Positions 11,170-60,635 of a stretch of 64,000 nucleotides of DNA are shown in pieces. The notes below the pieces were generated by a model that had not been told where the DNA came from, searched no databases, and saw only the letters and a list, made by a program, of their open reading frames with translations. The position numbers and the translations under genes are program-made. This stretch comes from an uncultured Rikenellaceae bacterium (GTDB taxonomy: Bacteria > Bacteroidota > Bacteroidia > Bacteroidales > VadinHA17), in assembly GCA_964634565.1 (NCBI GenBank), contig CAZWLP010000002.1, positions 26,856 to 90,855 on the forward strand. The letters run 5' to 3'. Each line of letters starts with the position of its first letter. Within the stretch, counting starts at the first letter, position 1.

Positions 11170-13559
11170 CTGTCTGAACTTCTTGTTAATATAAGTCTGA
11201 TCTTTTTATATGGTTCTGGATTTGCAGATAACCACACCTCGGGATCCAGGTTCATGTCTTCGTCGCTATAGCCAATTACATAAACTTCTATTTCCTTTCC
11301 AATATATGTGCTATCAAGAGGGAAGTAATAAGTGTAATTTGAATCGCTGACTGCATTTATATATTCCCAGGTATTTGATGGATAGGAGAGAGCCCTGTCG
11401 GGAGCACCAATATATTTATCTTCTACCTTAAGTGCAGCATAGGCTCCTTCAACACCATGGTATCCGTTAATGGCTACAGAGAGATAGCTTCCCTCGGCAA
11501 TCTCACTTAAACTAAAGCTCGTGCCCCAGGCTTCTGATGCTTCTTTTTTATCAGGATGAGCAAACAGGTTGCTGGCGCTAAAGCCCTCATGATCAACCTG
11601 TATACCGTTTTTGTAAACAAGTATTTCTATTAGCCTGTCGGCATATTCTTTAAACCTGAGGTATCTGAGGGGTTCATTAATTGAGATAGTCATTCTTTTG
11701 CCTGCCAGGTAAGTAAGAGTTTTCCAGTTAAGAAGATCGCCGGACACCTCAACATAATTACCCTCATCTTTTAACAGTGGCTGCAGGGAATATTCGTCGG
11801 GAGCTATCAAAACCACACTATCAACGTCAATTACCCGGCCCAGATCAAGTCTGAAACAACCACCCTCAATGCGCTGGTCTCGTTTATACTTTCTGGAAGG
11901 AAAAAACCCTGTTTCCGGATTTCCGTCAAACAGGTTTTTATCCCATATGCCCCGTCGGGTAAAAGTAGTTTGCATAAAAAATGCATCTCTTGCATCCTGT
12001 ACTTCTTTAATTTTTGTTGGACCGGATCGATTAAGAGACCTCACTTCAAGTGCATTATTATCGGCAGCAAAGACAGTTGCCTCATATAATGCCTCTGCAT
12101 CATCCGGAATATTAATTTTATCCATCAGGGCAATATGCCTGTTAAATGGCAGTGTCAATTCCTGTCCGGGAAAGTCTATTTTTACCACCCTTCCCCTTGT
12201 AAGCGGTATTGATTCTTTTCCGCCAAGCATAGCCATGCTATAATTATCAGATTCTTCCAGTTGAATATATGAACTTGTTCCGGGCATGCCCAGAACATCA
12301 ATTTCAATATTCTGATCATCAATATTTTTTATTATATGATAGTCTGAACCAATAATGCCGGGCTCATCAAATTTTTCACTGCTAACAATAAGTAAGAATG
12401 ATCTGAAAGGGGGAACAACAACATCAATAGTCTCGCCTGCCGGAAATATCCCAAGCACTTTTTCCACAGGGTGAAACTGTCTTACATAATACTGGTATGT
12501 ATCATCCAGTCCTATTTCTTTCCCTGGCCTAATAGTATATAATTTATCCTCCCAGCTTAAATTACGAAGAGTAATAATACGGGTGTCCTTATCGCCCCTG
12601 CTAATGGCATGGGGGCCATATTCAGATGGCAACATCATGCCTCCGGTAAGTATATCACGATATTTCCTGTGAAAATTATATATGCGGGCAAGACGAGGAA
12701 ATTCATCGTCTCTCATTAGCCAGGGATTACCATAAATTTGAGGTGAGAGTATAAGCCCTCTGTTAAAAGCCTGCAGAACCAGGTCATCGTCCCAATAATC
12801 AATACAGGAAGAGATACATACCCCATGATCTTCTGTAAGTCTCATTAAATCGGGTACCAGTCCCCGGGAAATTGCTTCAGCACGGTGATGGGGTGCCGTA
12901 AGCCTGTTATTCATAAATACATCAATATATGTCTCTGCCCCTTCCCATAAAAACGTTGTAGCATATGGCTTTGCCCTGTCAAGGCCCAGTCTGTGATTTA
13001 AAAGAATAAGATCCGGGCTATACGACCTGGCCCGGGTCATCATTTCGATAAAATAATCTTCTTTTTCCGGCCTTAAGGGTCCACATACAGCATCAAATTT
13101 AAAGAGAGCAAATTCATAATCACGACAGAGCATAACCATTTGATCTATCCTGGCCCTTGCCTCATCTTCGGTGTCGCCAAAGCCATCAGGGCCACCCCAT
13201 ACTCCTAGTCTTATACCGAGTTCTTTTGCCCGCTTATATATAGGATCAAAGCCATTCGGAAATTGCTTTTTAAACCTTTCGGAATAGATACTTCCATAAA
13301 ATCTTTTACCATCTATGGCACCTGCGTCAAAAGCATAAATATCCAGCTGCATGCCATATTCCTTTTTTAACCAGCCAAAGAAATCAAGATTAATAAGAGC
13401 CTGTTGCTCACTTGCTCCTTCGTTGGTGTTGTTGATCCACGAAAAATATTGAGCCTTCGAAGGAGTGCCTTCGTCTGCTCCGGCATTAATAAATTCCTCC
13501 TGTCCGGATAAACCCGGCGACAGCATAACGATTAGTACAGATATAATTAATTTGTTCAT
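11166..13559 (-). CDS. Secreted hypothetical protein: TIM-barrel glycosidase-like N-region plus discoidin-like C-region
   Basis: 797 aa with signal peptide MNKLIISVLIVMLSPGLSGQ. The LDIYAFDAGAIDG...EFALFKFDAVCG blocks resemble clan GH-D-type barrels. C-terminal GGCFRLDLGRVIDVDSVVL resembles an F5/8 type C domain. Function uncertain. Confidence 0.45.
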   Translation of the reverse strand: MNKLIISVLIVMLSPGLSGQEEFINAGADEGTPSKAQYFSWINNTNEGASEQQALINLDFFGWLKKEYGMQLDIYAFDAGAIDGKRFYGSIYSERFKKQFPNGFDPIYKRAKELGIRLGVWGGPDGFGDTEDEARARIDQMVMLCRDYEFALFKFDAVCGPLRPEKEDYFIEMMTRARSYSPDLILLNHRLGLDRAKPYATTFLWEGAETYIDVFMNNRLTAPHHRAEAISRGLVPDLMRLTEDHGVCISSCIDYWDDDLVLQAFNRGLILSPQIYGNPWLMRDDEFPRLARIYNFHRKYRDILTGGMMLPSEYGPHAISRGDKDTRIITLRNLSWEDKLYTIRPGKEIGLDDTYQYYVRQFHPVEKVLGIFPAGETIDVVVPPFRSFLLIVSSEKFDEPGIIGSDYHIIKNIDDQNIEIDVLGMPGTSSYIQLEESDNYSMAMLGGKESIPLTRGRVVKIDFPGQELTLPFNRHIALMDKINIPDDAEALYEATVFAADNNALEVRSLNRSGPTKIKEVQDARDAFFMQTTFTRRGIWDKNLFDGNPETGFFPSRKYKRDQRIEGGCFRLDLGRVIDVDSVVLIAPDEYSLQPLLKDEGNYVEVSGDLLNWKTLTYLAGKRMTISINEPLRYLRFKEYADRLIEILVYKNGIQVDHEGFSASNLFAHPDKKEASEAWGTSFSLSEIAEGSYLSVAINGYHGVEGAYAALKVEDKYIGAPDRALSYPSNTWEYINAVSDSNYTYYFPLDSTYIGKEIEVYVIGYSDEDMNLDPEVWLSANPEPYKKIRLILTRSSDR

Positions 13560-23189: not shown

Positions 23190-24632
23190 ATGAAATATGA
23201 TGTTATAATTATCGGAGGGGGCCTTGGCGGACTTACTGCAGGAGCAAAACTTGCAAGGGAAGGCAGGAAGGTCCTGCTTCTTGAGCAACACGACAGGCCG
23301 GGAGGCTGTGCAACAACCTTTAAAAGGAAAGATTATATTTTAGAGGTAGGTCTTCATGAAATGGACGGACTGCATCCGCGCGACCTGAAAACAAAAATAT
23401 TTAATGATCTTGGCCTCTTCGACAGAGTTGAGTTTCTTCCTGTACCGGAGTTTTATCGCTTCGTCCAGGGCAGGCATAGCATAGTAATACCTCACGATCC
23501 CGAGAGGGCAACAGAAGAGTTATTAGAGCATTTTCCGGAAGAAGAGAAGGGTATAAACTTATATTTTGAGAGTGTATTAAACGCAAGAAAAATAGCCGGA
23601 GCAAAGGATGCTCCAGCCGATAGAAATGTCGGCGAATGGCTCGATGAGATAATATCAAACGAAACACTTAAGCTGGTACTGCTGGGTAACCTGGGTTATT
23701 TTCACGACGACCCGTATACCCTTTCATATTATTACTACCTGACCGCACAGGGAAGCTATTATAATGGCAGGGCGAATTATATTAAGGGGGGGTCGCAGCA
23801 ACTGTCTGATGCCCTGGTAGATATTATTGAAGAAAATCAGGGAATAGTATTGCTGAATACCCTTGCTGAAGCAATCGAATATAATAAGGATGGCACTGTC
23901 GGGGTAAAATATTGTGTAAAGGACAGGGGGCCGATAGCTAAAGAGATTGCCCACGCCGAAAACATAGTTGTTAATTCATCACTCCCGCAGCTTGTAAATA
24001 ATCTTCTGCCTGAGGGCTCGGCCACATCGCTCAAAGAAGAGATAAAAGATTTAAATATAGGAGCTTCGCTACTAACAGTATATTATGGGTTTAAGAAATC
24101 GCTGAAAAGCGTGGGCAATAAGAATTATTCTATATTTCTATACGACGAAAGCGTTAAGTCACAGGCCGATATACTGACAAATAATCACAGCGATTTTAAG
24201 ACCAGGAGCTTCACCTTTGTAGATTACAGTCAGCTTGATTCAGGACTTGCCCCAGGCGGCAAAAGCGTAGGTGCTGTTTGTTGTATAGACTACCTCGACG
24301 ACTGGGATAAGCTTGATAAAAAGGAATATGTAAAGCGAAAAAAAGAGGTCGCAGAGATATTTACACAAAGACTTGATAAGATAATTCCCGGTTTTGCTGA
24401 CTCTGTGGAATATGTAGAGGTAGGAACCTCACGCACTGTAAAAAGATATACAATGAATCCTGGCGGAGCGGTATATGGTTTTGCCCAGAATCCTTCTAAG
24501 CCAATATCATATCTGAATAAACTACCTGATAATATATATCTGGCATCAGCCTGGGGTAAGTTTGGCGGAGGTTTTTCCGGTGCTATATTCAGCGGCTATA
24601 TGACAGCCTTCGATATATTAAGAAAAAGATAA
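23190..24632 (+). CDS. NAD(P)/FAD-dependent oxidoreductase, phytoene-desaturase (CrtI)-like
   Basis: MKYDVIIIGGGLGGLTAGAKLAREGRKVLLLEQHDRPGG is a Rossmann GxGxxG dinucleotide motif. Length 480 aa. Confidence 0.8.
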   Translation: MKYDVIIIGGGLGGLTAGAKLAREGRKVLLLEQHDRPGGCATTFKRKDYILEVGLHEMDGLHPRDLKTKIFNDLGLFDRVEFLPVPEFYRFVQGRHSIVIPHDPERATEELLEHFPEEEKGINLYFESVLNARKIAGAKDAPADRNVGEWLDEIISNETLKLVLLGNLGYFHDDPYTLSYYYYLTAQGSYYNGRANYIKGGSQQLSDALVDIIEENQGIVLLNTLAEAIEYNKDGTVGVKYCVKDRGPIAKEIAHAENIVVNSSLPQLVNNLLPEGSATSLKEEIKDLNIGASLLTVYYGFKKSLKSVGNKNYSIFLYDESVKSQADILTNNHSDFKTRSFTFVDYSQLDSGLAPGGKSVGAVCCIDYLDDWDKLDKKEYVKRKKEVAEIFTQRLDKIIPGFADSVEYVEVGTSRTVKRYTMNPGGAVYGFAQNPSKPISYLNKLPDNIYLASAWGKFGGGFSGAIFSGYMTAFDILRKR

Positions 24633-51847: not shown

Positions 51848-51937
51848 TACGGCTTTTTCTTTGCCAGCAGGGCGGCTGCTGTCAGTCCACTTATTCCGGC
51901 ACCAATAACAATCACATCTGATCGGGAAATACTCATT
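51848..51937 (-). pseudogene. 29-codon 5' fragment of an FAD-dependent oxidoreductase gene
   Basis: [29 protein letters not shown] contains only the GxGxxG N-terminus. It matches 64/74 nt of the fragment at 60459..60532. Confidence 0.7.
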
Positions 51938-52165
51938 TCACTCTTTTTTATAGCTGAATAAAGTAATAAATAATTATTAATACAAGATTTATAGATTCTG
52001 ACTATAATGCCAACAGTAAAATTTAAAGAGGATTATTATGACAGACATAATAAAGGGCTGTCTGTTCCAGATCCTTTTCTCTTGTTTTTTCAACACAAAA
52101 CTATAAAACGACCCTGTTGTCATTTAATATTAATTTTATATCTTTGTTGCACAAAACTATCAACT

Positions 52166-52618
52166 ATGATTTTATCAAAAAGTACCGAATATGCAATCAG
52201 GGCGCTAATATTTGTACAGATGCAAAACATAGCGGAGAAACGGCCTGGGGTAACAGAAATAGCAAATGGGATTGAAGCACCCGTGGCTTTTACGGCAAAA
52301 ATATTACATCTTCTTACCACGCATAGATTATTATACTCTCTTAAGGGTAAGGGCGGGGGTTTTTATTTTCCCGATAACCATACAGACCTGACTGTTTATG
52401 ATGTTATTCTTACTATAGAAGGAGGCGGTATATTTACTGAATGCGCAATCGGACTGAAGAGCTGTTCGGACAAAAATCCCTGTCCGATACACAAGGAATA
52501 CGAAAAGGTTCGGGAACAGTTCTTAAGTATGAGCAAAAAGCAGACTATTTTTTTGATGGCACAAAAAACAGTAAATGGCGAGGCGGTTTTAAATCGTTTA
52601 AATTCTCCAAATGTTTAA
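52166..52618 (+). CDS. Rrf2 family regulator with C-x6-C-x5-C-x2-H motif (IscR/NsrR-like Fe-S sensor)
   Basis: ATG 52166 gives MILSKSTEYAIRALIFV... CAIGLKSCSDKNPCPIH provides 3 Cys + His. The track start at 52007 adds an implausible 53 aa. Confidence 0.85.
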   Translation: MILSKSTEYAIRALIFVQMQNIAEKRPGVTEIANGIEAPVAFTAKILHLLTTHRLLYSLKGKGGGFYFPDNHTDLTVYDVILTIEGGGIFTECAIGLKSCSDKNPCPIHKEYEKVREQFLSMSKKQTIFLMAQKTVNGEAVLNRLNSPNV

Positions 52619-52642
52619 TTTGAGATATTTCAAAACATCTTA

Positions 52643-54178
52643 ATGAGCAAATTAACACGACTATATAAGAAGCTGCATAAATGGCCGGCACTGATCATTG
52701 CATTTATCCTTTTATACTATGGTATCTCGGGGATTCTGATGAACCATCGGGAGCTGATCTCAGCAATAGATATTAGCCGTAAGCTGCTTCCCCGGAAGTA
52801 TCATATAGAAAACTGGACAAATGGTGCTTTAAAAAGTACATTGATAATCAATCCTGACAGCATACTTGCTTTTGGGAATATTGGAGTCTGGGTTACTGAC
52901 TCATACTATCAGAAATACAATTCCCTGAATTCCGGATTTAAAAATGGTATGGATAACCGCAAGATTTATGATGTCCATCTAACAAACGACGGAAATCTTT
53001 ATGCGGCCACCCACTTTGGTCTTTACTCTTTTGATCCTGATAAAAAAAAGTGGACGCAACTGCCTCTGGATGTGAACAATAAAAGATTTGTGGCAATCGA
53101 AAGCATAGGCGATACGCTTTATGCCCTTAACAGGTCATACCTGTTTAAAGGGCTTTCTGAGGGAAGTAAAACATCCTTCAATAAAATAGAACTACCTCCT
53201 TATTCCGGCTTTAATGACAAGGTAGGATTATTTGAAACAATCTGGCAAATTCATTCAGGTGAGATTTTTGGAATACCGGGTAAAATATATGTTGATATTC
53301 TGGGTTTACTTACCATATTTATATCCCTTAGCGGGATAATATATTTTTTCTTTCCCAGGTGGATAAAACGAAGGAAAAAGCGAAATACAGGGTCGGGAAG
53401 AATTATTGAAATCAACAGATGGTCCTTAAGATGGCACAACCGTATTGGAGCCTGGGTCTTTGCATTTCTTGCAATTCTCTTTTTTACAGGGATGTTCCTT
53501 CGCCCACCCCTCCTTATTGCCATTGCCAGTGCAAAAATTAAGGCGCTGCCATATACTCATCTCGACCAGGCAAATCCCTGGTACGATAAAATGCGGGGTC
53601 TATTATACGATAAGGAGAAAGATATTCTGCTCTTATCTGCATCCGAAGGGATGTTTTATATGAGTGCCGCCGATCTTCAGCCAATAAAGTATAGCTATCA
53701 GCCACCGGTCAGTGTTATGGGCATAAATACGTTTGAAAAAATAAATGAACTTGAATATATGATAGGTTCATTCAGTGGCTTGTTCAGATGGAACCCTGAA
53801 GGCCCGGTGGTATATAATATAATAAACGGACAAATATATAATGAGTCGGGCGGAGGAAGACCTGTCGGAGACATAAAAGTTTCGGGCACCTTCTATGATC
53901 ACAGGGGAGGGCTTCTCCTTGTCGACTATGATAATGGGGTAATTCATGTTAATAATACCGAACTTCACTTTCCGCCCATGCCCGAAAACATATTAGACGT
54001 TTCAGGCATATCACTCTGGAATTTGGCTCTTGAATTCCATACAGGAAGAATCTTCGAACCCTTGCTCGGGGTTTTCTATGTGCTTCTTGTACCCCTTACG
54101 GGACTTACAGCCTTTATAGTAGTAATAAGTGGTTATCTGCTCTGGAGAAAAAGATTCAGATCGAAAGCCAGGAAATAA
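52643..54178 (+). CDS. PepSY-associated TM-helix family membrane protein (PiuB/FoxB-like)
   Basis: N-terminal LHKWPALIIAFILLYYGISGILMNH, internal RWHNRIGAWVFAFL, and C-terminal LEFHTGRIF motifs. Four TM helices and two large external regions. Confidence 0.7.
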   Translation: MSKLTRLYKKLHKWPALIIAFILLYYGISGILMNHRELISAIDISRKLLPRKYHIENWTNGALKSTLIINPDSILAFGNIGVWVTDSYYQKYNSLNSGFKNGMDNRKIYDVHLTNDGNLYAATHFGLYSFDPDKKKWTQLPLDVNNKRFVAIESIGDTLYALNRSYLFKGLSEGSKTSFNKIELPPYSGFNDKVGLFETIWQIHSGEIFGIPGKIYVDILGLLTIFISLSGIIYFFFPRWIKRRKKRNTGSGRIIEINRWSLRWHNRIGAWVFAFLAILFFTGMFLRPPLLIAIASAKIKALPYTHLDQANPWYDKMRGLLYDKEKDILLLSASEGMFYMSAADLQPIKYSYQPPVSVMGINTFEKINELEYMIGSFSGLFRWNPEGPVVYNIINGQIYNESGGGRPVGDIKVSGTFYDHRGGLLLVDYDNGVIHVNNTELHFPPMPENILDVSGISLWNLALEFHTGRIFEPLLGVFYVLLVPLTGLTAFIVVISGYLLWRKRFRSKARK

Positions 54179-54207
54179 GTTAAACCTAATATTAATAAAT
54201 TGATGCT

Positions 54208-54546
54208 ATGGTAACAAAAACATTTTTATCAGAACCAGTAAAAGAAACTCCACATGGTGTGGATGTAAGACAATTATATAACGATGCTTCGGCTCAGATT
54301 ATGCACATTAGCCTGAAACCGGGAGAAAGCCTTAAGGCACATAAAACGCCGGTTGATGTTGTTTTTTACATATTGGAGGGAGAACCCACAATCCATATTG
54401 GTGATGAAAGTCTTCACCAGCGAAAAGACACACTTATCGAAAGTCCGGCCAATATTACTCATTATATAAGCAATGAAAGCGGTGAGGGGGCTAGAATACT
54501 GGTTATTAAGGCACCCAGACCTGAAAACAAAACTAAAATATTGTAA
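54208..54546 (+). CDS. Cupin domain protein
   Basis: 112 aa. LKPGESLKAHKTPVDVVFYILEGE...NITHYISNES shows the two cupin motifs. Confidence 0.75.
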   Translation: MVTKTFLSEPVKETPHGVDVRQLYNDASAQIMHISLKPGESLKAHKTPVDVVFYILEGEPTIHIGDESLHQRKDTLIESPANITHYISNESGEGARILVIKAPRPENKTKIL

Positions 54547-54558
54547 ATACTAAAGTAT

Positions 54559-55806
54559 ATGAGCGAGTTAATTAATAATTCCAGATACCGTAAGGATCGT
54601 TTAAAAGAATTGATTCTGAAGCTTCACGATGGAGAAGACCCGGACCAGGTCAGGAAGGAATTGACCGACACCTTGAAGACTGTACCCTACTCTGAGGTAG
54701 TAGAAGTAGAGCAGGAATTGATAAGCGAAGGCCTGCCTGAATCAGAGGTTCTGAGATTATGTGATATACATGGAGAAGTTCTCGAGGGACATGTTGATCA
54801 GACAGGGTCGAAGGAAGAGCCAGAGGGGCATCCGATGGACGTGTTTAAGAAAGAAAACCTGGAGCTGAAAAAGGTTACCGCAAAAACCAGGGATCTTCTG
54901 GATTCGGTTTTAAAGGTTCCTGAAGAGACATTCGATAAGATCAGAAATGTTCTCCTGTCCTGCTTCAACGACCTTATGGATGTTGATAAGCATTACCAGC
55001 GTAAGGAATACCTGATGTTCCCCTACCTGGAGAAGAAAGAGATTACAGGACCACCGAAAGTGATGTGGGGAAAACATGACGAGATCAGGGACCAGTTAAA
55101 AGGCTGCATTGCTCTTCTGAAAGAGCCCGAATTAAGCAGGAACGACCTTGTGGAATCATTGGATCTGCTCTTTTACCCCATTATAAAGGCACTGGATGAC
55201 ATGGTACAAAAGGAAGAGGAAATCCTGTTCCCGATGGCAATGGACATGATCACGGAGGAAGATTGGTGGAATATTCACCAGCAAACACTTGAATTCGGAT
55301 TTACACTGTATGACCCACAGGTAGAATGGAAGCCTGTAGGGTTTGAGCTTTTATCTGAAACAGCAACTACAACAAGTGGAGACGGCTCCATTCAGTTGCC
55401 ATCGGGCAGTTTTACTTCCAGGGAAATTATGGCCATTCTTAATACCCTGCCCGTGGATATGACCTTTGTTGATAAGGATGACAAGGTTAAATATTTCAGC
55501 CAGGGATCACACAGAATATTTCCCAGGAGCCGGTCCATCATCAACAGGGATGTCAGGTTATGCCATCCTCCTGGAAGTGTTGATATAGTGGAAAAAATTC
55601 TTGAAGATTTTAAATCAGGGAAGGCTTCGCACGCTCCTTTCTGGATTCAGATGAAGGGTAAATTTATTCTAATTGAGTATTATGCACTCAGGGATGAAAA
55701 GGGAGAATATCTCGGAACACTCGAAGTCTCACAGGATATCACAGAAGCAAGATCTCTTGAAGGAGAACAACGTATTTTATCTTACGGAAAAGAAAAGGAG
55801 GAATAA
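54559..55806 (+). CDS. DUF438-type protein: hemerythrin-like N-region plus PAS-like C-domain (paralogue 1)
   Basis: 415 aa. H/E-rich helices (CDIHGEVLEGH, DVDKHYQRKE, WGKHDEIRDQ). C-terminal LPVDMTFVDKDDKVKYFS...RLCHPPGSV... Confidence 0.75.
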   Translation: MSELINNSRYRKDRLKELILKLHDGEDPDQVRKELTDTLKTVPYSEVVEVEQELISEGLPESEVLRLCDIHGEVLEGHVDQTGSKEEPEGHPMDVFKKENLELKKVTAKTRDLLDSVLKVPEETFDKIRNVLLSCFNDLMDVDKHYQRKEYLMFPYLEKKEITGPPKVMWGKHDEIRDQLKGCIALLKEPELSRNDLVESLDLLFYPIIKALDDMVQKEEEILFPMAMDMITEEDWWNIHQQTLEFGFTLYDPQVEWKPVGFELLSETATTTSGDGSIQLPSGSFTSREIMAILNTLPVDMTFVDKDDKVKYFSQGSHRIFPRSRSIINRDVRLCHPPGSVDIVEKILEDFKSGKASHAPFWIQMKGKFILIEYYALRDEKGEYLGTLEVSQDITEARSLEGEQRILSYGKEKEE

Positions 55807-55807
55807 T

Positions 55808-56329
55808 ATGGAAGCATTTCTTATTACACCCAGAACGAAAATCCATGATTTACTGGAGGCCTGTCCTGAACTTGAGGAGACACTGATAAAGGCTGCCCCT
55901 CAGTTTAAAAAGCTGAAGAATCCTCTGTTGAGAAAGACCATCGCTCGAGTTACTTCTCTCAGCCAGGCAGCCTTAATAGGTAACCTTAAAGTCGAAGAGC
56001 TTATCAATACACTTAGGGAGGCAGCCGGACAGCAACTACAGGAAAGCTATGCCGAAGAAGAAAGATCATATAATTCTGAAGTTCCGGACTGGTTTTCTCC
56101 TGATGCTGTTAAAGGCAATATTGATATCAGCTCTATGCTTAATGCAGGCGAACAACCTGTCCACGAAGTATTATCTGCCATAAAGAAAATGAATGAGGGA
56201 CAGATACTGGAAATAAATTCACCTTTTATCCCTGCACCACTTATTGATAAGGCTATAGGCCTGGGCTATTCTTACTGGATCAGTGAGGTGGCTGATGATG
56301 AATTCATTGTTTATCTCAAAAAACAGTAA
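55808..56329 (+). CDS. DUF1858 + DUF2249-like two-domain protein
   Basis: ATG 55808 gives MEAFLITPRTKIHDLLEACPELEETL...LKNPLLRKTIARVTSL (DUF1858-like). The C-terminus GEQPVHEVLSAIKKMNEGQILEINSPFIPAPLI is DUF2249/TusA-like. Confidence 0.7.
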   Translation: MEAFLITPRTKIHDLLEACPELEETLIKAAPQFKKLKNPLLRKTIARVTSLSQAALIGNLKVEELINTLREAAGQQLQESYAEEERSYNSEVPDWFSPDAVKGNIDISSMLNAGEQPVHEVLSAIKKMNEGQILEINSPFIPAPLIDKAIGLGYSYWISEVADDEFIVYLKKQ

Positions 56330-56335
56330 CTCAGC

Positions 56336-57526
56336 ATGTCAGAATTTACAGATAAACAGAGTCAGAGGATATCAAGGCTTATTGAGCTTTCAGATCTTAT
56401 TCTGAAAACCGGAAATGCCAGGGGATTTATTCTGGAAAATAAGGATTTTATTGCTTCAGTTTTACCTTCTGATTTTATTTTTCTCTTTGACGAACTGATG
56501 AGGCAGGGTCATAAGATGGAAGATATGAAAAGCCTGTCCAATAAGATCCTGAATATATTTCACAACACACTTTCTGATTTCAAGCATCTGAAACCAGCTC
56601 CCGGCTCTTTCCTTAATATAATGGAACAGAATAATCGCGAAATGGAAAAGGTTCTTAAAAGCATTCGTCCGGTCTACAAATCCTTTATTAAAAATCCCGC
56701 CAGCACTTCCATTAGAAAAAAACTCCTTCAGCATTTCGAAAGACTGCAAAAATATACAGACTATTATGTAATTAAAGAAAATGTCTTATTCCCCGTCATA
56801 GAGAAAAGTTTACCTGAGCACAGGTGCCTTCATATAATGTGGTCATTTCATGATGATATAAGAAGGAGCATAAAATCCATTCTGGAACAATTGGACGACC
56901 AGATAAACGATCAAAAAGTATTTAACAGATGTGTAGGTGATGTCTTTTTTAATATGCTGGCCATTAAGTTCCGTGAAGAGAAAATACTTTTTCCGTATAT
57001 CATGTCCACGGTTGATAAAGATGAACTTGAAATGATGAATCAAGAGGCTCTGGAACCTGGATTTCCATATATTCAGCCAGAACATAAACAAATGTCTGTG
57101 CTTAAGACAGGCTTAGATAAGACTCTTTTGGATCTTGGCACAGGCGCACTTGAACCCGAACAAATCAAACTGATATTCAATCATCTTCCGGTTGATATTA
57201 CCTATGTGGATGAGCATGATACAGTGCAATTTTTTTCTGAACCAAAGGAAAGGATCTTCCCGAGAACAAAGGCCATTGTGGGCCGTAATGTTCATAACTG
57301 CCATCCCCCTGAAAGCATTCATGTTGTAGAAAAAATTATTCAATCATTCAGAAAGGGAGAGAAGGACAATGCCTCTTTCTGGATTAATATAAAGGGAAAG
57401 TACATCCTGATACAATATTTTGCTGTCAGAAATAAGAATAATGAGTATAAGGGAGTAATTGAAGTAAGCCAGGATGTTTCTGAAATTAAGATGATTAAAG
57501 GCGAGAAGAGATTGCTTGACTGGTAA
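56336..57526 (+). CDS. DUF438-type protein (paralogue 2)
   Basis: 396 aa. The C-terminus LPVDITYVDEHDTVQFFS...HNCHPPESI... is clearly paralogous to 54559..55806. Confidence 0.75.
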   Translation: MSEFTDKQSQRISRLIELSDLILKTGNARGFILENKDFIASVLPSDFIFLFDELMRQGHKMEDMKSLSNKILNIFHNTLSDFKHLKPAPGSFLNIMEQNNREMEKVLKSIRPVYKSFIKNPASTSIRKKLLQHFERLQKYTDYYVIKENVLFPVIEKSLPEHRCLHIMWSFHDDIRRSIKSILEQLDDQINDQKVFNRCVGDVFFNMLAIKFREEKILFPYIMSTVDKDELEMMNQEALEPGFPYIQPEHKQMSVLKTGLDKTLLDLGTGALEPEQIKLIFNHLPVDITYVDEHDTVQFFSEPKERIFPRTKAIVGRNVHNCHPPESIHVVEKIIQSFRKGEKDNASFWINIKGKYILIQYFAVRNKNNEYKGVIEVSQDVSEIKMIKGEKRLLDW

Positions 57527-57581
57527 AGAATTAAAACAGGACCATTTCATTACCTTTGTAACGGTATAATTTAAAAAAGTA

Positions 57582-57983
57582 ATGAATTTCAGCAAAACAA
57601 CATCCTATGCAATTACTGTCCTGAATTTTCTTGGGAAACATCCCGGCAAACGCTATTCTGCCAGGGCCCTGAATGAGCTCCTTGATATACCATGGCAATA
57701 CCTGCGCCAGCTGCTTACAACACTTTCAAAGGAAGGTTTTATCGACAGTGTCCAGGGACGAAATGGAGGTTTTTCAATAGCCCGGGACCCTTCTGAAATA
57801 TCAATAGCAAGCATCGTTGAAGCCACAGAGGGGATGAGTGTTTTTAATACCTGCATAATGGGATTCAGGGAATGCCCCTTTGAGGTGAAATGTGCCATGC
57901 ATGAAACCTGGGAAGAAACCAGGGCAAATATAATTAAAGTACTAAAAACCACCACTCTGGATAAGTTCAGGGATCTGGATTAG
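57582..57983 (+). CDS. Rrf2 family regulator with C-x6-C-x5-C-x2-H motif
   Basis: MNFSKTTSYAITVLNFL... CIMGFRECPFEVKCAMH has the same ligand spacing as 52166..52618. Confidence 0.85.
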   Translation: MNFSKTTSYAITVLNFLGKHPGKRYSARALNELLDIPWQYLRQLLTTLSKEGFIDSVQGRNGGFSIARDPSEISIASIVEATEGMSVFNTCIMGFRECPFEVKCAMHETWEETRANIIKVLKTTTLDKFRDLD

Positions 57984-58003
57984 GAGAATTATTTTTTGAA
58001 AAT

Positions 58004-58027
58004 ATATGCGATGACGGTGTCGCATAT
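58004..58027. promoter_or_regulatory. Candidate Rrf2 operator upstream of the oxidase-like genes
   Basis: atatgcga-N8-tcgcatat is a perfect 8-bp inverted repeat. A related half-site gtatcgca lies at 58050..58057 (compare gtgtcgca at 58018..58025). Both are in the 115-bp gap before 58099. Confidence 0.4.
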
Positions 58028-58098
58028 TAAGAAATTATATGCTACATTTGTATCGCAGTTAAATCTAATTTCAATAATAAGCTAAAAAGGAGGTAATT

Positions 58099-58671
58099 AT
58101 GGTTGATACAGAACTTGTAATAAAGGGTCAGACCATTGCATACACACTGTATTGTGCTGTCATCATACTTGTGATGCTCTGGATTGCTACAAGGTTAACG
58201 AAAAAAGGTAAGGGCGAAAGCAAGGTAAAGCCTGCTCTCTTTTATACTTTCGTCACTTTTCTGGCTGTTTTGGGTGTGTCTTTGCATATCATCACCTATA
58301 ACACAATTCCCTGGTCTGAAATGGATCTGAACCGGCACGAAATAACAGCCGACAAAACATTTAACATTACCGTGGCCAATCATAAATTTATTCTGCCCGA
58401 GGAGGAAATGATAATCAATACCGGTGATATTGTTGTGTTTGATGTTACTTCCCACGATCTTACCTATGGCTTTGGATTATTCAGGCAGGATAATTCCATG
58501 TTATTCCAGATGCAGGTGGTTCCCGGCCACAAAAATGATATTATGTGGCGTTTTGTAAATCCCGGAGTGTATACTATCAGGTCTACAGAATATTCTGGGC
58601 CGAAAGGGGTGGCCATGATTGAAGAAGATGTGGTAAAAGTAGTTGGAGAACCTCTGGAAAAAGAAAAATAA
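58099..58671 (+). CDS. Heme-copper oxidase subunit II-like cupredoxin protein lacking CuA ligands
   Basis: Two N-terminal TM helices, then a cupredoxin domain. FDVTSHDLTYGF stands for the S.DV.H.F block. RSTEYSGPKGVAM stands for C.E.CG..H..M, with both Cys replaced by Ser and His by Gly. Confidence 0.75.
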   Translation: MVDTELVIKGQTIAYTLYCAVIILVMLWIATRLTKKGKGESKVKPALFYTFVTFLAVLGVSLHIITYNTIPWSEMDLNRHEITADKTFNITVANHKFILPEEEMIINTGDIVVFDVTSHDLTYGFGLFRQDNSMLFQMQVVPGHKNDIMWRFVNPGVYTIRSTEYSGPKGVAMIEEDVVKVVGEPLEKEK

Positions 58672-58697
58672 TCCCGTAATCCTAAAAAAATAATCAT

Positions 58698-60323
58698 ATG
58701 AATTTCAAGGAAACACTTATAAACGGGGAACAGGGCTTATTTAAAGCAGAATCCCTTACTGCAATGCAGAAGCTTACCCTTCGCTTTGTCGTGGTTGGAC
58801 TGGTATATTATCTTTTCGTGCTTGTTGAGGGTATGATAATGAGAGTTTATGAAGTTGAACAGGTGAGTATGTTCACTGATAAGCAATTCTTTGCCATTTT
58901 AACAGCCCATCCCCTGGTTGGGATATTCGGATCGACCTATGCTATAGTAATGGGTGCATTTTTGTTTCTGGTGCCATATCTGATGAAAAAACCCCTGTAC
59001 AGCATGAAACTGGCGCACTGGAACTGGATTCTTCTTACTGCCGGTACCTTTATTTTCTGGTTTGCCGGATTCGTATCACATTATTCTCCCCTCTATACCC
59101 TCTACTGGCCCCTGCCGGCAGATTTTACACAATTTGATCCTCTTGGCGGAACATTTTTTGTGCTTGGGATTGCAATTCTGATGGTTGGAGCCTTATTCTT
59201 TATCATAAATATTTTTAAAACAATAAGCTATACCCCCGAGGGTTGGGAAAAACAACCTGCAGGAAAGCTACTGGGATCTGCTCTGGGTACATCAGGCCTG
59301 GCTAATCTTTTCAGGAAAAAGAAAGAAAGAAAAGATCATCTTGTTTCATTGCCGGTTGCGGCTATTGCACGCGGAACGGTCGACATGGCCCTGAATACCG
59401 GTATTATACTGTTTACCGGGGTTCTTATTCTGATATATATGATAGGCCATCTTATCGGCCACAGTCTTGATAACACTGCAGTTGATGCCCTTTTATACAA
59501 AAACTGGTTCTGGTGGGGACTTGACCTTATTGCGGACGGACTGGTATTGATATTTGTAGCCGGAACCTGGTACCTGCTGGCAACAATGATTACCGGCAAG
59601 AAACTCTTTATGCAGAATATTGCAAGGGCAGCACTGCTGGTTGAACTTATTGTCTCCTGGACGGTCTGGTCACATCATTTGCTCTCCGACCAGGCTCAGC
59701 CCGGATTCCTTAAAGTACTGTCGGGCGAAATGGTAACAGCCTTTGAACTGATCACTCAGGGACTGGCATTCTTTATTACGCTGGCAACACTCTGGGCCGC
59801 ACGTCCCCTAAAGATGACTAACGAACTAAAATTCCTACTGGGAGGATTGCTTGGCTTTGCTCTTGCTGTTCCGGCAGGTATTATGCAGGCAGATGTTGGT
59901 CTGAACAGGATACTTCATAACACCCAGTGGGTAGTTGGCCCTCATGTTCATGTGGCCATCCTTGTAGGACTTACAATGACCCTCTATGCTGCCATTTATA
60001 TCTTGCTGCCCATTCTTACCAATGGGGCTAAATTATATAGCCAGAAACTGGCTAATATACATTTCTGGCTGCACCTTGCCGGCGGAATCGGAATGGGTGC
60101 ATTTATGGGAATGGCCGGGTTGAAGGGAATGCTCAGACGCACCCTGTATTTTGACGGCGAATACGATCTCTATATGATTCTTGCCATGATATGCGGCGCA
60201 CTTCTGTTGATAGCCTTCCTTGTATTTTTTATAAATATCGTTATGACCATTGGACTAAAAGGTCTTCTGGGTATATTTAAGGCAACTAAAAACAAGGACC
60301 TGAAACTTGTGCCCGACGCTTGA
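58698..60323 (+). CDS. Heme-copper oxidoreductase superfamily subunit I homologue with Asp-His-His active-site ligand set (gNOR-like candidate nitric oxide reductase)
   Basis: 541 aa. His71 (LTAHPLV), His326-His327 (WSHHLL), and His407/416/418 in [14 protein letters not shown]. The helix VI block is FWWGLD276LIADG instead of FFGHPEVY or VVHLWVEG. Confidence 0.75.
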
Positions 60324-60347
60324 AAAATAATTAGATAATGCTTTTTG

Positions 60348-60382
60348 AGAGGCGGCAAAACTTGTCGCCTCTTTTTGTTTTT
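60348..60382 (+). terminator. Strong rho-independent terminator closing the nine-gene island
   Basis: Stem agaggcg(gcaa) / (ttgt)cgcctct (60348..60372), then ctttttgttttt. Confidence 0.85.
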
Positions 60383-60391
60383 ACAGGCTCG

Positions 60392-60532
60392 AAAAGCGCC
60401 GCATGACCCCCCAGGCTGGTAATGCTGTTCAAGCAATTTTACCTTTAAGCCACTCTTTGCCAGGAGGGCGGCCGCTGTCAATCCGCTTATTCCTGCACCA
60501 ATAACAATTACATCTGATCTGGGATCACTCAT
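60392..60532 (-). pseudogene. 5' fragment of about 47 codons of an FAD-dependent (CrtI-like) oxidoreductase gene
   Basis: [47 protein letters not shown] is followed by unrelated sequence. That sequence reads through the island terminator and antisense into 58698..60323. Confidence 0.7.
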
Positions 60533-60635
60533 TTTAAAAACTGAATAGCCTTCCTAAATCTATAAAGAATTATTTACTTTTTCCTTATGATATAATCCCG
60601 GGTTTCTTTCCAGGGAGGACCCAGTCTGTAGTAGT

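Follow-up and report, generated by a model that had tools for sequence, protein, structure and literature searches.

We analysed a 64,000-nt window of contig CAZWLP010000002.1 from an uncultured Rikenellaceae bacterium, in which nine + strand open reading frames (ORFs) form a string that a first-pass annotation had read as one self-contained, doubly regulated module for nitric oxide (NO) detoxification and repair. We propose instead that this island consists of two neighbouring NO-response transcription units joined in this genome, a reading to which we give a probability of roughly 60%. Module A comprises genes 1–6 (Rrf2a, PepSY_TM, cupin, DUF438a, DUF1858/DUF2249 and DUF438b) and module B genes 7–9 (Rrf2b, gNOR subunit II and gNOR subunit I). 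The nine-gene string is a local joining of these two modules, which limits the original claim: the juxtaposition does not amount to a new conserved system.

The gNOR family, the control of NO reductases by Rrf2 proteins and the link of DUF2249/DUF1858 proteins to N-oxide clusters are already known. Undescribed in the searchable literature are a dedicated Rrf2 protein with a conserved operator for gNOR, the replacement of this arrangement by HcpR2 boxes in other genomes, and the DUF438-DUF1858 pair as a module common to qNOR, gNOR and RIC contexts.

Conservation of the two modules across loci

The nine ORFs have the order, strand and positions first reported, and the eight gaps between them, taken from the ORF coordinates, agree exactly (24, 29, 12, 1, 6, 55, 115 and 26 nt). 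Conservation was assessed in two samples, whose loci carry L-numbers (L006, L081 and so on) as labels. The first consisted of 80 species-representative genome loci centred on gNOR subunit I, which were searched with the nine proteins and the flanking genes. The second consisted of 80 metagenome loci centred on gene 4 (DUF438a), in which neighbouring ORFs were clustered and the recurrent ones annotated.

Around gNOR, subunit II accompanied subunit I in 77 of 80 loci and an Rrf2b homologue stood directly upstream of subunit II in about 55, whereas genes 1–6 were each present in only 5–7. Module A was found near gNOR in L033, L051, L057, L065, L068, L078 and L081, either downstream or a few kb off, and the closest relative, L006 (91% subunit I identity), carries Rrf2b-II-I alone and no module A. 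The nine-gene order of the window occurred in none of the 160 sampled loci. Because Rrf2b-II-I alone is conserved and no locus shows the window's order, the island is best described as a juxtaposition of two parts: unit B, whose three genes are conserved together, and set A, whose six genes are more loosely assembled around a two-gene core. Thus, the nine genes are not the self-contained, co-conserved unit that had been claimed: module A is absent from ~88% of gNOR loci, and the neighbourhood search that had been suggested as a check recovers Rrf2b-II-I, and genes 4 and 5 as a pair of their own, but not the full set.

Around DUF438, a DUF1858 gene followed directly in 77 of 80 loci, which makes the two an obligate pair. 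Rrf2a was located upstream of this pair in 18–19 loci, PepSY_TM occurred in 8–9, a second DUF438 paralogue in about 11 and gNOR in 5. A qNOR (COX1 plus a NorB cytochrome c-like domain) was present in 9 loci, placed divergently from RIC-Rrf2a-DUF438-DUF1858 or directly upstream of the pair, and RIC/YtfE (ScdA_N plus Hemerythrin) in 8. The cupin appeared beside the DUF438 pair or directly after gNOR in 5–6 loci of each 80-locus set. When only DUF438 loci with at least 3 kb of upstream sequence are counted, a membrane NO reductase (NOR) was adjacent in 7 of 39, and a NOR or RIC in 9 of 39; among gNOR loci with at least 3 kb downstream, 7 of 56 contained the DUF438-DUF1858 pair. By our own estimate, the chance that two single-copy families fall within 10 kb of each other is roughly 0.5%. 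The variation in arrangement from one locus to the next suggests that the association arose repeatedly and independently.

Could the nine genes nevertheless form a single obligatory operon that evolved and functions as a whole, with one promoter upstream of Rrf2a and one terminator? They are co-directional with gaps of 1–115 nt, and a 9.7-kb scan detected no terminator-like site within any internal gap. The strong terminator annotated after gene 9 is present and was the top-ranked site of that scan (60347..60383, + strand), with a stem of 12 pairs, 6 of them G-C (60347-60373), a loop of 3 and then the T-run TTTGTTTTTA. Transcription could run on from gene 6 into gene 7, as the 55-nt gap has no hairpin, and all nine families lie within ~12 kb in L081, as do eight of the nine in L051, in an order that differs from the window's. 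However, in every other locus with both modules, module A is downstream of gNOR or 4 kb off, and the ~88% of gNOR loci that lack it include the closest relative. Like the other alternatives considered below, the single operon has some support but fits the comparative data less well than the two-unit model.

The terminal enzyme and the gNOR family

By its sequence, the enzyme encoded at the end of the string (subunit II, gene 8, 58099..58671, + strand; subunit I, gene 9, 58698..60323, + strand) belongs to the published gNOR family, whose members have an Asp in place of an active-site His, no Tyr cofactor, a cupredoxin subunit without CuA and kinship with the B-family (Murali et al., PMC11214002). 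Gene 9 matches Pfam COX1 (E = 2e-53, 182 bits) and its best solved relatives are B-family ba3 oxidases. When aligned with the T. thermophilus ba3 enzyme, H71, H326, H327, H416 and H418 of subunit I correspond to ba3 H72, H282, H283, H384 and H386, and H71, H416 and H418 are the kept heme ligands (ba3 H72, H384 and H386). The CuB ligand H233 of ba3 is replaced by Asp276, with H282/H283 kept as H326/H327, and the cross-linked Tyr (ba3 Y237) is replaced by Asp280. All close homologues share the His-to-Asp replacement at the CuB ligand. Asp is also the residue given for gNOR at the cross-link Tyr position (PMC8756737). In a 12-sequence alignment, the motif WWGLDxIADG extended throughout the gNOR clade, including the 46%-identical relative P0123, whereas the next-nearest full-length relatives (B-family, 22–26% identity) carry the oxidase motif GHPxVY.

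Subunit II has a single N-terminal membrane segment followed by a predicted cupredoxin-like domain; it gave no Pfam match and only a weak match to NCBIfam CoxB. Aligned with ba3 CuA domains (HMMER, E = 1e-4), it has Tyr and Gly in place of the first and second CuA-ligand His and Ser in place of both Cys, and only the Met is kept. The identification as gNOR follows from the Asp residues at the CuB-His and Tyr positions, the retention of the five other His and the loss of the CuA ligands; every checkable feature of the family (Hemp & Gennis 2008; Murali et al. 2024, PMC11214002) is found in genes 8–9. The initial view that the enzyme is NO-reductase-like and not an oxidase is thus borne out as far as the features that define gNOR can indicate (PMC11214002).

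An alternative is that the locus serves oxygen respiration or sensing, the enzyme being a quinol oxidase and the hemerythrin/PAS proteins sensing O2. Hemerythrin domains classically bind O2, subunit I has a COX1 fold with ba3 oxidases as its closest solved relatives, subunit II lacks CuA like the subunits of quinol oxidases, and the public annotation of the subunit I protein is cytochrome c oxidase subunit I. However, the cross-linked Tyr needed for O2 reduction is an Asp in this enzyme, as is one CuB His (PMC11214002). Moreover, the accessory DUF438-DUF1858 pair accompanies gNOR in some loci and qNOR in others and is also found with RIC, and HcpR2 boxes (described below) lie upstream of gNOR where Rrf2b is missing. 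We therefore consider a role in O2 respiration or sensing quite improbable.

How widespread is this enzyme? More than 3,000 proteins match subunit I at E ≤ 1e-10, and at least 508 stretches of the species-representative genome collection encode a subunit I relative, the best 80 of them at 76–91% identity. Clustering of the subunit I family at 50% gave two full-length clusters only, and the gNOR clade spans Bacteroidota, Ignavibacteria and KSB1 with 76–91% identity across these groups. Carriers of the Rrf2b-gNOR unit include metagenome-assembled genomes labelled Draconibacterium, Tangfeifania and Maribellus (L030, L068, L042). gNOR was originally named on the basis of Sulfurimonas, Sulfurovum and Persephonella (PMC8756737), and it is one of several predicted N2O-producing enzymes credited with a large share of environmental NOR diversity (PMC11214002).

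Three observations concern individual gNOR loci. The gNOR of L006, at 91% protein identity, is seemingly more G+C-rich than the window (~40%), judged from ORF translations alone; it seems that the enzyme is either subject to strong purifying selection or a recent transfer. L046 and L051 derive from one metagenome-assembled genome (MAG; JAXLTU01) with two gNOR copies; module A lies within 8 kb of one copy and is absent at the other. In L166 (7576-10274), a divergent gNOR of another lineage (46% identical) has no Rrf2 gene, and a gene for a 186-aa stand-alone hemerythrin lies directly downstream of it.

Promoter boxes, candidate operators and the two Rrf2 regulators

Candidate promoter elements of the island were located with TAnnTTTG, the Bacteroidetes -7 promoter consensus (PMC7366714), on the + strand of its 676 intergenic and 7,967 coding nt. 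Three of the four matches were intergenic and one was coding. The intergenic boxes are P1 (TATCTTTG, 52139..52146, + strand), 27 nt before the ATG of gene 1; P2 (TACCTTTG, 57551..57558, + strand), 31 nt before the start of Rrf2b; and P3 (TACATTTG, 58043..58050, + strand), 56 nt before the start of gene 8. Their positions exactly before genes 1, 7 and 8 argue for up to three transcription starts and not for one obligatory operon. A sigma-70 promoter scan is uninformative for a Bacteroidetes genome, and the TAnnTTTG count was used in its place. Because separate candidate operators are also found before gene 1 and gene 8, we regard a single nine-gene operon as unlikely and retain the two-unit model.

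Both Rrf2 proteins carry the C-x6-C-x5-C-x2-H ligand set that had been noted in them, and it is conserved among their homologues. In Rrf2a (gene 1, 52166..52618, + strand; Pfam Rrf2, E = 3.5e-20) the set is C93/C100/C106/H109, and in Rrf2b (gene 7, 57582..57983, + strand; Pfam Rrf2, E = 3e-30) it is C91/C98/C104/H107. All 18 Rrf2a and all 58 Rrf2b homologues have the three Cys, and the His is present in 18/18 and 56/58, respectively. The two proteins are only 24% identical to each other, which fits two operator specificities.

The candidate operator of Rrf2a, which we call OpA, is a palindrome at 52106..52125 (AAACGAC-cctgtt-GTCATTT, no strand assigned), 14 nt upstream of P1. With two mismatches, it comes closest of all sites in the window to AAAAGAC-N6-GTCTTTT, a sequence with six exact copies in ~2 Mb of related loci. 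All six are found in front of Rrf2a or DUF438 or within the divergent regions of qNOR and Rrf2a, and copies with one or two mismatches provide further examples at the same positions. In the public gene calls of identical contigs, Rrf2a starts at 52007 (203 aa) and PepSY_TM at 52739 (479 aa). We prefer starts at 52166 and 52643 because of homologue alignments, the Pfam coordinates and the presence of the -7 box and OpA inside the 5' extension (52007-52165).

The candidate operator of Rrf2b, OpB, is a 7-6-7 palindrome, ATGCTAY-N6-RTAGCAT, common to the intergenic regions around Rrf2b in other genomes. The window has two variants of it before gene 8, neither assigned to a strand: site 1 at 58006..58025 (ATGCGAT-gacggt-GTCGCAT) and site 2 at 58039..58058 (ATGCTAC-atttgt-ATCGCAG), which encloses P3. 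The closest relative, L006, likewise has a tandem pair. No OpB was found before Rrf2b itself in the window, as in its closest relatives L006-L012 and unlike most other genomes. Counted with the degenerate family pattern ATRMTAY-N6-RTAKYAT, OpB is present in 42 of 51 Rrf2b-gNOR loci, just ahead of Rrf2b, in the gap between Rrf2b and subunit II, or at both places, and its density is 4.8 per kb in these regulatory zones against 0.025 per kb elsewhere, a ~190-fold enrichment. At three mismatches, the whole window holds 12 matches where 11.4 are expected, which is chance level; the weight of the two sites thus comes only from their position and their conservation across genomes. The degenerate pattern is matched perfectly at 12486, a site that was dismissed because it lies inside a coding region. 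From co-localisation we infer that OpA belongs to Rrf2a and OpB to Rrf2b. The term "doubly regulated" used in the first-pass annotation would thus fit, given regulators of 24% identity and what seems to be a separate conserved palindrome for each.

A second line of regulatory evidence comes from related loci. The HcpR2 box, GTAACnnnnGTTAC, is an NO-regulon motif of Bacteroides and Clostridia (PMC1274295). Exact boxes were found 76–172 nt upstream of subunit II in L013, L031, L039 and L079, all without Rrf2b, and directly upstream of DUF438 in L134 and L138. Altogether there were 9 exact matches in ~2 Mb, 6 of them at gNOR or DUF438 promoters; by our estimate, chance alone would give about 2 matches in total. 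Compared with the known HcpR2 regulon (PMC1274295), boxes thus precede gNOR or DUF438 in six related loci without Rrf2 genes, whereas the window contains no HcpR2 box and has two Rrf2 regulators in its place. These boxes suggest, independently if indirectly, that gNOR has a role in NO metabolism. The dedicated Fe-S regulator and its sharply conserved operator likewise lend indirect but independent support to that role. The published accounts of gNOR that were consulted name no regulator or accessory genes; here, we find a dedicated Rrf2 gene with a conserved operator and, in ~10% of genomes, the DUF438/DUF1858 module as well.

How might the two units work? Rrf2b would be an Fe-S cluster repressor of the NsrR functional type, binding the two 7-6-7 palindromes that overlap the -7 box before the gNOR genes and thereby repressing them. 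NO would damage its cluster, and derepression would lead to the synthesis of gNOR, a membrane heme/non-heme-metal enzyme that would convert 2 NO to N2O and would probably be fed by quinol; quinol oxidation is considered probable for the family (PMC11214002). Rrf2a, a distant paralogue, would repress module A through OpA at its own promoter, and NO would relieve this repression too. Module A, whose DUF438/hemerythrin/PAS_10 protein is predicted to be cytoplasmic, would serve NO handling generally, through sensing, upkeep of metal centres or electron supply. Since gene 7 has a -7 box and no operator, and no terminator follows gene 6, read-through from P1 is possible, and we speculate that it would couple both units. 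The role in NO detoxification originally proposed for the island is supported by context, as the DUF438-DUF1858 pair lies beside qNOR, RIC/YtfE and gNOR and behind HcpR2 boxes; a "repair" role of the hemerythrin proteins is conjecture.

This scheme resembles the regulons of NsrR, a repressor of the Rrf2 family that senses NO through an [Fe-S] cluster and controls hmp, ytfE, nnrS and norB (PMC1274295), in its Rrf2 protein with three conserved Cys, its palindromic operator over the promoter of an NO reductase gene and the presence of RIC/YtfE in the same units of related loci. It differs in that the operators are 7-6-7 with other cores, the first Cys spacing is x6, scores are far below the NsrR cut-off, and two regulators with separate targets share one locus.

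Several points weigh against an NO-response function. The earlier comparison of both regulators with IscR/NsrR-type sensors holds for the cluster-ligand set, which is conserved, but not for family membership, as all three NCBIfam cut-offs were missed: NsrR (NF008240) scored 29.7 bits for Rrf2a and 44.9 for Rrf2b against 182, IscR (TIGR02010) 37.2 and 60.8 against 207.6, and RirA (NF008886) 43.2 and 57.1 against 193. The OpA and OpB palindromes are unlike the published NsrR box, gATGyAT-N5-ATrCATc (Rodionov et al. 2005, PMC1274295), and within the window OpA has two mismatches and the OpB sites have variant half-sites. The gNOR family is without biochemical characterisation, NO reduction having been argued from its active site and a bioinorganic mimic (PMC11214002). 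The hemerythrin domain could equally sense O2 or iron, and for about three quarters of the DUF438-DUF1858 pairs the contig holds no NO gene. Finally, the 64-kb window contains no nitrite reductase or other N-oxide gene. The surrounding genes encode an RND efflux system, a LytTR two-component system, an MFS transporter and an FGE-sulfatase-like protein, and these surroundings, together with the absence of other N-oxide genes, favour detoxification over denitrification.

The regulator scores bear on a further alternative, an iron or Fe-S homeostasis locus in which the Rrf2 proteins would be IscR/RirA-like, PepSY_TM would be a reductase of the ferric-siderophore type and the hemerythrins would be iron stores or iron sensors. 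The SUF-regulator, RirA and IscR models all outscore NsrR for both Rrf2 proteins, although every score is below its cut-off. The PepSY_TM family includes di-heme siderophore reductases such as FoxB, and hemerythrin-like domains bind iron. However, no isc, suf or iron-uptake gene is found in the island or recurs near either module, the neighbours that do recur are NO reductases and RIC, and PepSY_TM is optional, with 9 of 80 loci. We consider an iron locus improbable.

Module A proteins and the flanks of the island

Most of the family labels first given to the nine genes were confirmed by Pfam and NCBIfam; three need qualification, as gene 6 has no match to the DUF438 domain, the DUF2249 match of gene 5 is below threshold and gene 8 has no Pfam match. 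The core of module A is gene 4, DUF438a (54559..55806, + strand), with Pfam DUF438, Hemerythrin and PAS_10 domains and homology to the uncharacterised PDB entry 3CAX (E = 2e-60). Its Hemerythrin match (PF01814, 67.5 bits) is above the gathering cut-off and retains conserved H, D and E positions, the conserved residues of the protein being H91, D141, D143, H145, E150, H173, D174, E219, E220 and C335-H336-P-P.

Gene 6, DUF438b (56336..57526, + strand), is a full-length paralogue of gene 4 (31% identity, BLASTP E = 8e-63). Its Pfam matches are Hemerythrin (33.1 bits) and PAS_10, with no DUF438 N-domain detected. It lacks equivalents of H91, D141, D143 and H145 and keeps the PAS_10 motif, and judging from these residues its metal site is probably degenerate. 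At least 90% of 83 family members have the Cys-His-Pro-Pro motif in PAS_10 (55561-55572 in gene 4, 57299-57310 in gene 6), a possible ligand site through which heme or a metal could take part in gas sensing. Two further genes are optional in module A: gene 2 (52643..54178, + strand), a PepSY_TM membrane protein (Pfam PepSY_TM, 79.4 bits over residues 10–504), and gene 3 (54208..54546, + strand), a small cupin (Pfam Cupin_2, E = 8.6e-12).

Gene 5, the partner of DUF438a (55808..56329, + strand), matches Pfam DUF1858 (56.7 bits) and has a TusA-fold, DUF2249-like C-terminal domain. DUF2249 itself scored 21.2 bits against a cut-off of 29.5, and many close homologues are pre-annotated as having both DUF1858 and DUF2249 (PF10006). 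In an AF2 model built from a 40-sequence alignment (pLDDT 82.8), this domain is similar to the YeeD, SirA and TusA folds (Foldseek probability 1.0, TM ~0.7 on target). Residues ~100–173 (56108-56329) carry G-E-Q-P-V-H at the site of the TusA Cys motif, with E115 and P117 invariant and the other four residues in at least 90% of 40 homologues. The domain may be a metal- or ligand-binding variant.

The TusA-like fold raises the alternative that, instead of plain NO detoxification, gNOR and its helpers serve sulfur or sulfide chemistry or have S-nitroso species as their targets. In 8–11 of the 80 gNOR loci, genes for split, YeeE/YedE-type sulfur-transport halves and rhodanese follow gNOR (L045 12205-14171, L027 12556-14403, L072 4483-7391), which fits the mainly sulfidic habitats reported for gNOR carriers (PMC11214002). 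No sulfur gene is found in the window's island, however, and the regulators and operators point to NO-type regulons. The catalytic Cys motif of TusA is C-P-x-P, and the domain of gene 5, where E-Q-P-V-H replaces it, lacks the catalytic Cys. A sulfur function is therefore very improbable.

Proteins with DUF2249 and DUF1858 domains have been tied to denitrification and N-oxide clusters in Thermus (PMC6282519) and haloarchaea (PMC11218638). In Thermus thermophilus, DrpA (DUF2249) and DrpB (DUF1858-DUF2249-DUF2249) are encoded in a nitrate-respiration cluster and are proposed nitrate sensors (PMC6282519). Gene 5 likewise joins DUF1858 to a DUF2249-like domain in an N-oxide gene cluster, but it has only one such domain, where DrpB has two, and it always comes with a DUF438/hemerythrin/PAS_10 partner; for DrpB, membrane binding has been reported.

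The other known proteins to which module A can be compared are the RIC/YtfE/ScdA di-iron proteins, which share with it a hemerythrin-like domain, membership in NO regulons and, in 8 loci, the same operons. Their architectures are different, and gene 4 scored only 18.6 bits with the RIC/YtfE model (TIGR03652) against a cut-off of 204.7. RIC co-occurs with the DUF438-DUF1858 pair, so the two are not simple substitutes. The idea that DUF438 and DUF1858 form a "split RIC" is unsupported: hhalign of DUF1858 with the RIC N-domain gave 14% over 30 columns, and a Foldseek search with the gene 5 model returned no RIC match.

The DUF438 and DUF1858/DUF2249 pair moves between qNOR, gNOR and RIC contexts and is a tractable candidate for an NO accessory system. 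Tentatively, and with more doubt than conviction, we suggest that the two proteins form a dedicated, interchangeable accessory system for membrane NORs, qNOR or gNOR, that may sense NO or load or repair the non-heme metal site. If this is true, the wiring through Rrf2b/OpB and HcpR2 would be the first regulatory evidence of an NO-responsive, Asp-ligated gNOR, and NO-responsive gNOR would be widespread among anaerobic Bacteroidota of sulfidic habitats.

The genes flanking the island do not recur. Those upstream (caspase-TPR, hypothetical and metallophosphoesterase) are absent from other gNOR loci apart from one weak match to caspase-TPR in L074; the FGE-sulfatase-like gene downstream had four weak, non-orthologous matches (26–28% identity) in these loci. 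An Rfam gathering scan of 51.0–61.2 kb found no RNA family, a tRNA scan of the window found none, and so no tRNA-type integration site, and no integrase is nearby. Base composition does not set the island (0.38–0.43 GC) apart from its flanks. The identical locus is present on at least five independent metagenome contigs, and its nearest named relatives are Marinilabiliaceae and Bacteroidales MAGs.

An 81-nt direct repeat, or ~100 nt if a 9-nt indel is allowed, brackets the whole island. The left copy (51858..51938, - strand) covers the first 26 codons of a truncated NAD_binding_8-type gene. The right copy (60454..60534, - strand), 88% identical, belongs to a 48-codon 5' remnant of such a gene, which breaks off at the terminator. 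Both are 5' ends of an NAD_binding_8/phytoene-desaturase-like gene with an intact paralogue at 23190-24632, 28 kb upstream, and the repeat may be a scar of the assembly or insertion of the island.

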